A stretch of DNA of 64,000 nt from Eledone cirrhosa (lineage: Eukaryota). A program made the position numbers and the translations under genes. This document shows positions 12,011 through 42,012 of this stretch, one piece after another. The stretch is from positions 308,698,001 through 308,762,000 of the forward strand of contig OZ024742.1 in assembly GCA_964016885.1 (NCBI GenBank), written 5' to 3'. The notes under the pieces are model-generated. The model was given only the letters and a program-made list of their open reading frames with translations. It ran no database searches and was not told where the DNA came from. How positions within the stretch are numbered: the stretch's first letter is position 1; the number at the start of each line of letters is the position of its first letter.

Positions 12011-12334
12011 TATATATATATATATATATATATATATATATATAAACAAATAACGAAACGAAATTAAATTTCGTTTCGTTTGTAACTCACTTTTGTATGA
12101 CTGACGCTTAAACAATTAAGTTAAAAATGTACATCCACATATGTATACTGAAATACTAGTATGCATATGAATACACACACGTATACATATGTAGATGTAC
12201 CGAGTTTTTCACTGGTCACTTTACTGTGAGTGTCCAGCTATTCTGTATGTAAACACACAGACAAACCGGTTTTTAGAGTCATACTGGTTTTTGAGGAAAC
12301 ACCTTTCCTCTATTCTCCAGAAAGCCAGACAAGG

Positions 12335-12379
12335 AATATTGAACTAGTTTCGATGTTGTTACATCTCATCAGCAATATT
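12335..12379 (-). ncRNA. Minimal type I hammerhead ribozyme (array A unit 1)
   Basis: AAUAUUG CUGAUGA GAUGU aaca ACAUC GAAAC ua GUU CAAUAUU: 7-bp stem I, 5-bp stem II with G10.1-C11.1, palindromic ACUAGU stem III, GUU triplet. Confidence 0.9.
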
Positions 12380-12800
12380 TACCTATCTTCCGGCCTCTCT
12401 AGAGAATCGTAAAAGCACATATCGTTATATGCTTTTTCAATGAAAATTAGTAGTGGGCAGACTAATTTGCATAGAGCGTGAGTACGTACCGGTTCAACGG
12501 AGACGATAAAAACAAATAACGAAACGAAATTAAATTTCGTTTCGTTTGTAACTCACTTTTGTATGACTGACGCTTAAACAGTTAAGTTAAAAATGTACAT
12601 CCACATATGTATACTGAAATACTAGTATGCATATGAATACACACACGTATACATATGTAGATGTACCGAGTTTTTCACTGGTCACTTTACTGTGAGTGTC
12701 CAGCTATTCTGTATGTAAACACACAGACAAACCGGTTTTTAGAGTCATACTGGTTTTTGAGGAAACACCTTTCCTCTTTTCTCCAGAAAGCCAGACAAGG

Positions 12801-12845
12801 AATATTGAACTAGTTTCGATGTTGTTACATCTCATCAGCAATATT
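12801..12845 (-). ncRNA. Minimal type I hammerhead ribozyme (array A unit 2)
   Basis: Identical to unit 1, offset +466. Confidence 0.9.
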
Positions 12846-13266
12846 TACCTATCTTCCGGCCTCTCTAGAGAATCGTAAAAGCACATATCGTTATATGCTT
12901 TTTCTATGAAAATTAGTAGTGGGCAGACTAATTTGCATAGAGCGTGAGTACGTACCGGTTCAACGGAGACGATAAAAACAAATAACGAAACGAAATTAAA
13001 TTTCGTTTCGTTTGTAACTCACTTTTGTATGACTGACGCTTAAACAATTAAGTTAAAAATGTACATCCACATATGTATACTGAAATACTAGTATGCATAT
13101 GAATACACACACGTATACATATGTAGATGTACCGAGTTTTTCACTGGTCACTTTACTGTGAGTGTCCAGCTATTCTGTATGTAAACACACAGACAAACCG
13201 GTTTTTAGAGTCATACTGGTTTTTGAGGAAACACCTTTCCTCTATTCTCCAGAAAGCCAGACAAGG

Positions 13267-13311
13267 AATATTGAACTAGTTTCGATGTTGTTACATCTCA
13301 TCAGCAATATT
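13267..13311 (-). ncRNA. Minimal type I hammerhead ribozyme (array A unit 3)
   Basis: Identical to unit 1, offset +932. Confidence 0.9.
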
Positions 13312-14220
13312 TACCTATCTTCCGGCCTCTCTAGAGAATCGTAAAAGCACATATCGTTATATGCTTTTTCTATGAAAATTAGTAGTGGGCAGAATAATTT
13401 GCATAGAGCGTGAGTACGTACCGGTTCAACGGAGACGATAAAAACAAACGAAACGAAAGACCAGATACCTCAAGACAGTGCAAGCAATAACTAAAATAAG
13501 TTATTGGGGTAAAAAGAATTGGGACAAAAAGAAAGAGACATGTAAACAAACAGAATGGTAAGGCAACGCAAAGAGAGGAAGATGAGAAAGCAAGTCTGTG
13601 ATACATTGTGAACTTAAGTTCTAGCAAATCAATGACGAGAAGAACAGACGCGTCCAAACCTAGCGAAATGTGAGCGAGAAAAGGATTTCACACAGGTCAG
13701 ACGGGAGGAAGTGAGAGAGGGGGAGTAGCAGAGAGTGAGTGATTGAAATTGTGAGGAAGAGGCCAGCTGAGAGAGGGTGACCAGCAGAAGGGGGTGAATG
13801 AAAGTAAGAGATACAAGGAGAGAGAAGGGGGAGAGAGGAAGAGGATAGCAGTAAGGTAATAGAAACACACAGGTCACAGCGAAGGGAAAAATATATATGA
13901 ATGAAAACTCGTCATTGATTTGCTAGAACATAAGTTCACAATGTATCACTGACTTTCTTATCTTCCTCTCTTTACATTGCCTTACCATTCTGCACCCAAT
14001 TCTTTTTATCCCAATAACTTATTTTGGTTATTGCTCGCACTGTCTTGAGGTATTTGGTCTTTAATGCGAAGAAATACCGATGATAGCCAGAAGATCACTG
14101 ATAATGGATAGTCCTGGTTTCTTGCTCTATTTTTTTATTTTCACTTGTATCATATTCGCAACAACGCAGCACGCCATTTTTTATTTATATATATATATAT
14201 ATATATATATATATATATAT

Positions 14221-14390
14221 AGGAAAACAGTCAGGACCCCAACGAGTTCGGATCAAGCTGTCGAAACGGCCGGAGCTCAGCTATCGTGGTCCTGATTATT
14301 TTCCTATTACCCACTACTACTCTAAGTATCGAGTACTCTGGTGCGTTATGGTCCACCTGGTATATCTTACCACACCTTCATTGTTATATA
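14221..14390 (+). repeat. Short foldback relic of the Naiad-like pLTR 3' end (family also at 24540-24730, 37586-37780, 37960-38055, 57915-58055, 58765-58900)
   Basis: Shared ...GTCGAAACGGC..GAGCTCAGC..TCG.GGTC...CCTATTACCCACT..TAAGTAT.GAGTACT.TGGTGCGTTATGGTCCA.CTGG, flanked by (TA)n. Confidence 0.7.
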
Positions 14391-14400
14391 TATATACATA

Positions 14401-39115: not shown

Positions 39116-39553
39116 CCTGTGTCAGTGTTGAACAAAAAGGTGACGTGGTTGCCTTAACACCGTATGGCATAAATTCAGGCTGTTCAGTTTGTTGACAAAC
39201 GAACAAAGCGGCGTTATAATAAGCGTCCGGTAAACTGATGCGTGCATATATGTATGTGTACCTGTATGTATATATATATATATATATATATATATATATA
39301 TATATATATATGTATGCATGCTACTGTACGTCTGTATACATATATGTATGTACGTATACATACATACTTACATTTAAGTAAGTGCCATACTAAGAGTGAG
39401 AAATGAAATTTCGTTTTCATTTTTTTTCAACTTATCGTTTTCGGTATGCCTGACCGATTTAACTCACTCAATATGCAAATTAGGCTGCTCAGCCGTTAAT
39501 TTTCATAAGGAAAGTATATACTTTCGAACGTTCAACTATCTGGCAGATGGGTA

Positions 39554-39598
39554 AACGGTGCTGATGATAGCTAACAAGCTTGAAACTAGTACATCGTT
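39554..39598 (+). ncRNA. Minimal type I hammerhead ribozyme (array B unit 3)
   Basis: Identical to unit 1. Confidence 0.85.
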
Positions 39599-40044
39599 CC
39601 TGTGTCAGTGTTGAACAAAAAGGTGACGTGGTTGCCTTAACACCGTATGGCATAAATTCAGGCTGTTCAGTTTGTTGACAAACGAACAAAGCGGCGTTAT
39701 AATAAGCGTCCGCTAAACTGATGCGTGCATATGTGTATGTGTACCTGTATGTATATATATATATATATATATATATATATATATATATATATATATATAT
39801 ATATATGCATGCTACTGTACGTCTGTATACATATATGTATGTACGTATACATACATACTTACATTTAAGTAAGTGCCATACTAAGAGTGAGAAATGAAAT
39901 TTCGTTTTCATTTTTTTTCAACTTATCGTTTTCGGTATGCCTGACCGATTTAACTCATTCAATATGCAAATTAGGCTGCTCAGCCGTTAATTTTCATAAG
40001 GAAAGTATATACTTTCGAACGTTCAACTATCTGGCAGATGGGTA

Positions 40045-40089
40045 AACGGTGCTGATGATAGCTAACAAGCTTGAAACTAGTACATCGTT
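40045..40089 (+). ncRNA. Minimal type I hammerhead ribozyme (array B unit 4)
   Basis: Identical to unit 1. Confidence 0.85.
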
Positions 40090-40519
40090 CCTGTGTCAGT
40101 GTTGAACAAAAAGGTGACGTGGTTGCCTTAACACCGTATGGCATAAATTCAGGCTGTTCAGTTTGTTGACAAACGAACAAAGCGGCGTTATAATAAGCGT
40201 CCGGTAAACTGATGCGTGCATATATGTATGTGTACCTGTATGTATATATATATATATATATATATATATATATATATGTATGCATGCTACTGTACGTCTG
40301 TATACATATATGTATGTACGTATACATACATACTTACATTTAAGTAAGTGCCATACTAAGAGTGAGAAATGAAATTTCGTTTTCATTTTTTTTCAACTTA
40401 TCGTTTTCGGTATGCCTGACCGATTTAACTCACTCAATATGCAAATTAGGCTGCTCAGCCGTTAATTTTCATAAGGAAAGTATATACTTTCGAACGTTCA
40501 ACTATCTGGCAGATGGGTA

Positions 40520-40564
40520 AACGGTGCTGATGATAGCTAACAAGCTTGAAACTAGTACATCGTT
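40520..40564 (+). ncRNA. Minimal type I hammerhead ribozyme (array B unit 5)
   Basis: Identical to unit 1. Confidence 0.85.
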
Positions 40565-40987
40565 CCTGTGTCAGTGTTGAACAAAAAGGTGATGTGGTTG
40601 CCTTAACACCGTATGGCATAAATTCAGGCTGTTCAGTTTGTTGACAAACGAACAAAACGGTGTTATAATAAGCGTCCGCTAAACTGATGCGTGCATATAT
40701 GTATGTGTACCTGTATGTATATATATATATATATATATATATATGTATGCATGCTACTGTACGTCTGTATACATATATGTATGTACGTATAGATACATAC
40801 TTACATTTAAGTAAGTGCCATACTAAGAGTGAGAAATGAAATTTCGTTTTCATTTTTTTTTCAACTTATCGTTTTCGGTATGCCTGACCGATTTAACTCA
40901 CTCAATATGCAAATTAGGCTGCTCAGCCGTTAATTTTCATAAGGAAAGTATATACTTTCGAACGTTCAACTATCTGGCAGATGGGTA

Positions 40988-41032
40988 AACGGTGCTGATG
41001 ATAGCTAACAAGCTTGAAACTAGTACATCGTT
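40988..41032 (+). ncRNA. Minimal type I hammerhead ribozyme (array B unit 6)
   Basis: Identical to unit 1. Confidence 0.85.
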
Positions 41033-42012
41033 CCTGTGTCAGTGTTGAACAAAAAGGTGACGTGGTTGCCTTAACACCGTATGGCATAAATTCAGACTGT
41101 TCAGTTTGTTGACAAACGAACAAAGCGGCGTTATAGTAAGCGTCCGCTAAACTGATGTGTGCATATATGTATGTGTACCTGTATATATATATATATATAT
41201 ATATATATATATATATATATATATATATATATATATATATATATATATATATATATATATATATATATATGCATGCTACTGTACGTCTGTATACATATAT
41301 GTATGTACGTATACATACATACTTACATTTAAGTAAGTGCCATACTAAGAGTGAGAAATGAAATTTCGTTTTCATTCTTTTTCAACTTATATATATATAT
41401 ATATATATATATATATATCCATCCATACATATATATACTTTTACATATATATACTTTTACATATATATATATATATATATATATATATATATATATATAT
41501 ATATATATATATATATATATATATATATATATATATATATCCAGTGGGTGTAACTAGGAGTTACTGCAGGTTCACCCGGGTGAGCACTCGGTGTTTAGGT
41601 TCACTTCTGTCATGATGTGTAGAGCTATACAGAGTGTAAAATATAGAAAGGATAAAAAGTACGATTTATTATTCCTTCATTGCATTTATTGATAGGTGAC
41701 GCGCCTTTCGCCACTGATCAGCTCAAGGTTCGATCTATATCGATCCTACCCGACTCAATAATCAATCGTCCTTTTTATCCTTTCTATATATATATATATA
41801 TATACATATACATAAATGTATATATAAATGTATATATATATATGCATATATATGCGTATATGCATATTTATACATCTATATGCATATATATGTATACATG
41901 TATGTGTTTTTGTATGTATACATATATATACGTGGACACATACATTTCCTAAACACATCCATGAATCCATGAACTTATATCTCTTCAATATTCTTTCGTT
42001 AAAAACATATAA

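Follow-up and report, generated by a model that had tools for sequence, protein, structure and literature searches.

A 64,000-nucleotide stretch of the 3.0 Gb genome assembly of Eledone cirrhosa (GCA_964016885.1, contig OZ024742.1, forward-strand positions 308,698,001 to 308,762,000; hereafter 'the window', to whose own numbering the coordinates below refer) contains, in surroundings dense in (TA)n and retroelements, two arrays of short tandem units that each harbor a hammerhead ribozyme. Array A (12041-13458, minus strand) consists of three 466-bp units that are approximately 99% alike, and its 3' end abuts (TA)n at 12008-12044. Array B (38217-41390, plus strand) comprises a partial unit followed by six full ones of about 470-510 bp, the variation in length being due to internal (TA)n, and also abuts (TA)n at its 3' end; it is headed by an inverted, 5'-truncated piece (about 38078-38232, minus strand) that ends at the inner of two 3' ends described below, again beside (TA)n. 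The units have a GC content of 0.31-0.36, occur elsewhere in the genome as anything from monomers to arrays of more than 30, and are non-coding, with no credible open reading frame (ORF) and none combining a reverse transcriptase (RT) with a GIY-YIG domain.

The initial annotation had proposed that the two arrays are diverged homologues, and this was borne out beyond the ribozyme itself: all of the sequence blocks that it quoted were found, and local alignments of A to B outscored nearly all of 1000 dinucleotide shuffles upstream of the hammerhead (score 63; shuffle maximum 38; none as high), within it (score 47; none as high), across the first 120 nt past it (score 38; two as high) and in the 3' terminal block (score 39; one as high). 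In a global alignment, 307 of 439 aligned positions were identical, with a further 79 gap positions.

A type I hammerhead was present in all nine full units, in the order stem I, CUGAYGA, stem II with an AAYA loop, GAAA, a stem III of one pair, and U-H; the single pair of stem III is capped by CUAG, such that the whole forms the palindrome ACUAGU. In array A, the motif at 12785-12856 (minus strand) has its core CUGAUGA at 12838 and a predicted cleavage site after 12808 at the triplet GUU, with further cores at 13304 and 12372; in array B, a hammerhead with an extended stem I at 39540-39608 (plus strand) has its core at 39561 and a predicted cleavage site after 39591 at the triplet GUA, with further cores at 38567, 39078, 40052, 40527 and 40995. 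Across 12 natural haplotypes, 89.8% of cells in the predicted pairs were paired, as against 35-46% with slid partners, and eight of the 22 pairs had changed on both sides (three in stem I, three in stem II and two in the outer stem), while the core was unchanged in every haplotype occurring at least twice (279 contexts). The proposal that the stems covary around a conserved core was thus supported, in that compensatory change in the stems is real; the evidence is nevertheless phylogenetically thin, because six of the eight changes correspond to the single split between A and B, and because the number of two-sided changes did not exceed that in shuffles (144/500). Pair 24-68 was often T-T.

Predicted folds of the monomers were far more stable than those of shuffled sequences (z of -9.95 and -9.51), and stems I and II formed in both. 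No Rfam family reached its gathering score on these elements, the nearest being Hammerhead_HH9, which scored 36.5 bits on A (E 2.3e-7) and 18.5 bits on B (E 0.15) relative to a cut-off of 52. The predicted energy of the ACUAGU duplex was -4.8 kcal/mol, and a double hammerhead was not recovered by unconstrained cofolding of a dimer; a model of cleavage by dimers therefore rests on analogy. Cleavage of multimers into unit-length RNAs is likewise a prediction made by analogy, and activity is not assured, because only one of nine dimer elements from Xenopus was reported to cleave in vitro (bioRxiv 10.64898/2026.07.22.740005).

The best-conserved stretch outside the hammerhead core was a 12-mer, TATGCAAATTAG, located upstream of each ribozyme. 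In array A it lies at 12928-12939 (minus strand) and again at 12462-12473, with a variant at 13394-13405, and its start is separated by 41 bp from a TATA-like box at 12891-12898 (GCATATAA, or GTATATAA in some genomic copies). In array B it lies at 39472-39483 (plus strand), with further copies at 38478, 38989, 39963, 40438 and 40906, and the corresponding TATA box (GTATATAC, 39514-39521) follows at 42 bp. The same 12-mer was found at -77 to -80 of seven loci of the host: three for U6, one each for U6atac and RNase MRP, and two for tRNA-Sec. At all seven, a host TATA box of the form GTATA(T/A)A follows at -31/-32, always 46-48 bp after the 12-mer; the 12-mer was absent from eight upstream regions of U1 and U2 genes. 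A matrix drawn from five host genes scored A, B and subfamily B2b (described below) at 18.7 bits each (none of 2000 shuffles as high), a value as high as that of these genes, and scored subfamily C at 14.6 bits (17 of 2000) and the eight U1/U2 regions at no more than 10.0 bits. If host spacing is applied (31 from the G of the TATA box), the predicted start falls close to the base of the extended stem I: in B it is the A at 39545 (C|AG), 16 nt upstream of the core, in B2b and in families D and F (below) it likewise falls on C|AG, and in A it is one base off a purine.

While the initial annotation was correct that the blocks flanking the ribozyme are present and conserved, its attribution of that conservation to RNA structure was not sustained for the blocks TATGCAAATTAG and TATATA, which are better read as promoter DNA common to host U6-type genes, because the 12-mer remains constant while its hairpin partner varies (TAATTTTCAT versus TAATATGCAT) with no covariation. 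From these sequence comparisons, we regard it as probable that the upstream block acts as a functional promoter.

Observations on the host genes themselves yielded, as a by-product, a definition of the U6-class promoter motif of this animal that should be useful for guide RNA expression. In the loci examined for this (L103-L118, L133 and L304), the U1 and U2 promoters carry AATTA(A/G) near -90, TCAGT near -57 and, near -30, a box resembling TATA; a promoter of this type in the units was considered and rejected, as these motifs differ from those in the units. The single RNase P gene carries AAATCAGT in place of the U6-class 12-mer, and may for that reason be a gene of RNA polymerase II (Pol II) in this host. 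Large tandem clusters of U6, U2, U1 and SRP genes were observed (C19:31.78-31.84 Mb, C3:307.35-307.45 Mb, C2:180.97-181.0 Mb and C12:42.10-42.14 Mb), and some U6 repeats contain an insertion resembling a short interspersed element between promoter and gene (L097, L102).

The anatomy of the 3' ends was established from 70 loci picked by the terminal hairpin alone, which contained 89 distinct B-lineage hairpins. Forty of these were internal and ran into a next unit; the remaining 49 were terminal, and every one of them ended in (TA)n (47 directly and two via (TC)n), with the unit reading TTAT at the junction. An inverted, 5'-truncated head piece adjoined 37 of the 49 insertions, although a few short minus-strand matches may reflect internal hairpins. 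A second fixed 3' end was found to sit 55-75 nt inward of the outer end: among 130 B anchors, 83 matched the hairpin, seven more went on although their hairpin was altered or cut, and about 40 (one site being counted twice) stopped at the inner end, as did 12 of 43 A anchors. The intervening 'tail' extends in A from the inner end (AACTTAATT) to the outer end over 12041-12115 (minus strand), with a terminal hairpin of GAAACGAAATT and TTTCGTTTC, and in B from the inner end (CATACTTA) to the outer end (CAACTTA) over 41328-41390 (plus strand), with a terminal hairpin and a T-run. Penelope-like elements (PLEs) have been described as marked by an optional tail that arises through priming at two internal sites, by a 5' copy in inverted orientation and by targets that are AT-rich or (TA)n (PMC11167929, PMC8557442), and the two fixed ends, inverted truncated pieces and (TA)n targets of the units bear the same signature. 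The conserved 3' blocks, which had also been ascribed to selection on RNA structure, mark the two fixed ends of insertion.

These elements are numerous, and appear to have been active recently. The hammerhead motif had 38,315 exact matches in the genome (none for a reversed control) and the B-lineage terminal hairpin 23,342; the motifs represent a sizeable repeat class, estimated at roughly 0.5% of the genome if each of some 38,000 motifs corresponds to one unit. Because B copies on many contigs were 99-100% identical across 311 bp, recent activity is indicated, in agreement with the earlier suggestion of a single old family that includes recently active subfamilies, here several in number. 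The subfamilies present include A, A2, B, B2a-c, B3 and C. When the B unit was compared with contigs from four sequencing runs, variants of known subfamilies were found in two, two contigs in another, and none in the last. Further insertions lie in the window itself. One, of subfamily B2b (45448-46228, plus strand), combines an inverted piece (45448-45736) with a sense unit (45734-46228; 12-mer at 45814, core at 45903), and both of its ends lie in (TA)n; another is a monomer of subfamily C (54752-55170, minus strand; 12-mer variant at 55138, core at 55049). Two fragments lack a hammerhead: an A-lineage head-to-head fragment (36437-36656), antisense over 36437-36603 with an inner end and sense over 36603-36656 with an outer end, and a B-lineage 3' fragment with an inverted piece in (TA)n (21968-22250). 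Hammerhead-like elements of other families also lie in (TA)n, at 22560-22960, 37323-37454, 21230-21350 and 23820-23980; one at 22671 (minus strand) has a variant of the 12-mer at 22742, with a TATA only 33 away.

A pattern combining the 12-mer, TATA and a hammerhead core gave 25,396 matches in the genome and brought families D and F to light; these two and a family G, recovered with the host spacing, carry the pair of 12-mer and TATA 90-110 nt ahead of a different type I hammerhead. Family D (26295-26680, minus strand) has its core at 26440, a stem III of 3 bp, the 12-mer TATGCAAATCAG at 26533 and a TATA-like box at 43; family F (L277:1440-1720) and family G (L370, L371 and L377) have the stem III palindromes AUGCAU and AAUCGAUU, respectively. 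Outside of the 12-mer, TATA and hammerhead, D showed weak homology to A and B, and F showed no clear homology to them. Each of D and F has more than 2,200 candidates. A separate search, with the spacing set to that of host genes, returned 296 matches as against 11 for a control, and 26 of the first 30 were members of the old family G, nine of them with a recognizable hammerhead core; the spacing in G was 46-48 in 24 of the 26, and it is the sole family to share the host spacing (47). A comparison of G with A and B, in which none of 500 shuffles scored as high, was not used, as the DNA is rich in TA and the shuffles preserved mononucleotide composition only.

The genome harbors three abundant families of autonomous PLEs that have long open frames, and the window contains members or fragments of four PLE-like families. 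A Neptune-like PLE (14898-19650, plus strand) encodes an RT with a C-terminal GIY-YIG domain, in frameshifted form, and belongs to a family of some 19,000 candidates that include many open frames of 784 residues; its two 3' ends lie 39 nt apart in (TA)n, and a pattern search for a hammerhead core in its 3' repeat found none. The second family (31673-36130, plus strand; RT and GIY-YIG; some 26,000 candidates) has, besides an inverted 5' repeat, a minimal motif at 35982 that resembles a hammerhead. The third is represented by a very young PLE-like fragment (46490-49700, plus strand) with 100% protein identity to many copies (some 59,000 candidates), a long, microsatellite-rich 3' region and no Pfam match. 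The fourth PLE-like element (55336-58060) has a long inverted repeat, and short 3' pieces of it lie at 14222-14400, 24517-24729, 37586-38041 and 58741-58875; its 3' end with a tail of some 80 nt is often found alone in (TA)n, and also beside retrocopies of U6 and U6atac (L122, L131, L142). No autonomous partner of the units was found among these four: the first three families were rejected for lack of shared sequence in 54 loci, and the fourth because its ends are unrelated.

Taken together, these observations make it quite probable that A and B are subfamilies of non-LTR (non-long-terminal-repeat) retrozymes, with what is likely their own U6-type promoter, predicted self-cleavage and likely copying into (TA)n by a PLE enzyme, the last being suggested by the anatomy of the insertions. 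Under such a scheme, transcription driven by a unit's 12-mer and TATA box would begin some 16-30 nt ahead of the ribozyme core. As this promoter precedes its own start site, it would be regained only by transcripts that read through, past the T-runs, into the next unit, which the tandem layout allows and which might reflect either use of the promoter by Pol II or leaky RNA polymerase III (Pol III). The hammerheads would then cut, probably as dimers via the ACUAGU palindrome, and the monomers would probably be circularized, both by analogy with axolotl and other retrozymes (PMC7229834). The DNA itself shows that copies begin at either of the fixed sites on the two sides of the hairpin tail of 55-75 nt, on both strands of a (TA)n target, and that the resulting insertions are head-to-head, 5'-truncated and often multimeric; the enzyme responsible would be that of a PLE. 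A broader and more tentative proposal, for which we would put the chances somewhat below even, is that retrozymes in this lineage are self-contained units that captured an external U6-class promoter of the host and pass it on through read-through and cleavage, its spacing having been retuned from 47 in the old family G to 41-43 in the young A, B, D and F, possibly with a change of polymerase that would carry transcription past their own terminators, and that at least four hammerhead lineages have this design and are primed by a PLE enzyme at two fixed sites.

Several observations weigh against the retrozyme scheme or parts of it. With regard to the promoter, the spacing between 12-mer and TATA is 41 in A, 42 in B and 43 in D and F, as opposed to 46-48 in host genes; the TATA-like box of A is often GCATATAA; the gene for RNase P and four SRP genes lack the 12-mer, as do 14 further matches to U6 and four of five to U6atac, these last two groups having the look of retrocopies. 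The 12-mer also corresponds to the generic octamer, and each copy lies in the arm of a hairpin. Runs of T4 and T8 before the outer end in B, and of T5 in A, would stop Pol III, and family G also has a T-run soon after its ribozyme, which counts against that polymerase; T5-T8 runs lie before the 3' ends of units. In favor of Pol III, the stretch after the predicted start that is free of runs of at least four T extends for 274 nt in A, 360 in B, 345 in B2b and 175 in D and F, as against ten runs of at least four A. In an unlikely alternative, the elements are the same retrozymes mobilized by the same PLE machinery, with the upstream blocks kept only as RNA structure or as sites for RNA-binding proteins and with transcription by passive read-through from promoters of the host or of neighboring sequence. 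In its favor, every conserved block lies within a predicted hairpin, the spacing is about half a helical turn away from that of host U6-type genes, and templates must span both the promoter region and the T-runs. Such an account fits poorly with a 12-mer that is invariant while its hairpin partner changes, with the recurrence of the 12-mer and TATA in family F without clear homology of the spacer to A and B, and with the exact host spacing in family G.

With regard to cleavage and copying, stem II in the B lineage, at 4 bp, lacks the usual closing G-C pair and is instead closed by a U-U mismatch (C-A in subfamily C). The 29 mappable 5' ends (excluding one further end cut by a locus edge) were scattered, 12 of them upstream of the predicted start; as they were enriched neither at the cleavage site (one within 5 nt) nor at the predicted start (two), DNA offers no direct trace of cleavage or initiation, and their scatter indicates that the templates were uncleaved multimers, or circles, containing the promoter region. 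Aside from nested copies, the units shared no sequence with the 3' terminal repeats of the three PLE families in 54 loci (30 Neptune-like, 12 of the second family and 12 of the third), these three being the only families searched. That the units might instead be detached pseudo-LTRs of an autonomous PLE still in the genome, arising as solo or tandem by-products rather than as independent replicons, would account for their pseudo-LTR-like order of promoter, hammerhead and tail, and could draw upon the 24 of 57 Xenopus retrozyme families reported to match known transposable elements, nearly all of them PLEs, at their termini (bioRxiv 10.64898/2026.07.22.740005), as well as upon a weak likeness between the ends of B2a and B2b and the inner end seen in the Neptune-like family (with 37 and 93 in 2000 shuffles as high, uncorrected). 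The same 54 loci of three PLE families argue against it, as do the arrays of more than 30 units and the fact that none of the 89 hairpins was followed by anything but (TA)n, (TC)n or another unit, and we consider it decidedly improbable. Ordinary satellite spread at the level of DNA, with a hammerhead that is dead or present by chance, appears to us very improbable indeed: the long, near-identical arrays may well grow by unequal exchange, and the lack of an Rfam match at gathering score also speaks for it, but it has already been largely refuted by the fixed 3' ends, the tail with its two ends, the truncated copies in inverted orientation and the targeting of (TA)n, together with a core that is invariant in all haplotypes occurring at least twice among the 279 contexts while the stems covary.

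Elsewhere in the window are two broken sets of ORFs (5508-8136, minus strand, with flanking inverted repeats, and 8979-10014, plus strand) which we take to resemble DNA transposases; the one that was tested had no Pfam match.

The initial annotation knew of no description of this family, and that claim must be narrowed, as the kind has already been described: non-LTR retrozymes of metazoans are known from coral, mussel and axolotl (PMC7229834) and from a survey of vertebrates (bioRxiv 10.64898/2026.07.22.740005). This specific family was not described in the literature searched, which left aside Dfam, Repbase and supplements, where it may be listed unclassified; the words ribozyme and retrozyme are absent from the main text of a 2026 repeat annotation of Octopus vulgaris (PMC13282606). 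The class is thus known, and its link to PLEs has been published as a hypothesis that has support in vertebrates. A and B resemble non-LTR retrozymes in their short, low-GC, highly self-paired tandem units with a type I hammerhead in each, in copy numbers of thousands to 10^5 and in co-occurrence with PLEs; their one-pair stem III with a palindromic tetraloop is like that of HHR_Amex1, and HHR_Amex2 has the same U-U at the base of its stem II. Units of the A/B type, at 420-510 nt, exceed the 170-400 nt given in PMC7229834 and fall inside the 51-972 bp of bioRxiv 10.64898/2026.07.22.740005. The available parts of these two papers describe no internal promoter, no pair of fixed 3' ends, no head-to-head insertion and no targeting of (TA)n, and they name no cephalopod. 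How animal retrozymes come to be so widely transcribed, and which enzyme copies them, have been open questions, with PLEs proposed from co-occurrence and similarity to pseudo-LTRs. What is new here is that a non-coding retrozyme shows the PLE-specific tail with two ends and inverted insertions, and that it offers a concrete candidate promoter with a predicted start site, such that both questions become directly testable.

Relative to PLEs (PAc of the anole, PMC11167929; Neptune, Naiad and Hydra, PMC8557442), the units share the optional two-site 3' tail, inverted 5'-truncated copies, partial tandems, AT-rich or (TA)n targets and a hammerhead upstream of the tail; they differ in having no ORF, in a tail of 55-75 nt rather than 30-40, in a full-size hammerhead with extended stem I where the PLE type is minimal, and in matching none of the three tested PLE families in sequence. 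Internal promoters in tandem hammerhead repeats have precedents in satellite 2 of the newt, with an snRNA-type (small nuclear RNA) Pol II promoter, and in a Schistosoma satellite, with a Pol III promoter (both as cited in PMC2220036). Unlike those satellites, the block in A and B matches the upstream element of the host's U6 class (type 3 Pol III) rather than that of U1/U2, and it recurs here in four hammerhead lineages. It would be unusual for a mobile element to retain, through a cycle of RNA, a promoter that lies entirely upstream; in its own layout, that predicted promoter is like the type 3 Pol III promoters of U6, H1 and 7SK, with an upstream element and a TATA box at about -31 from a purine start.

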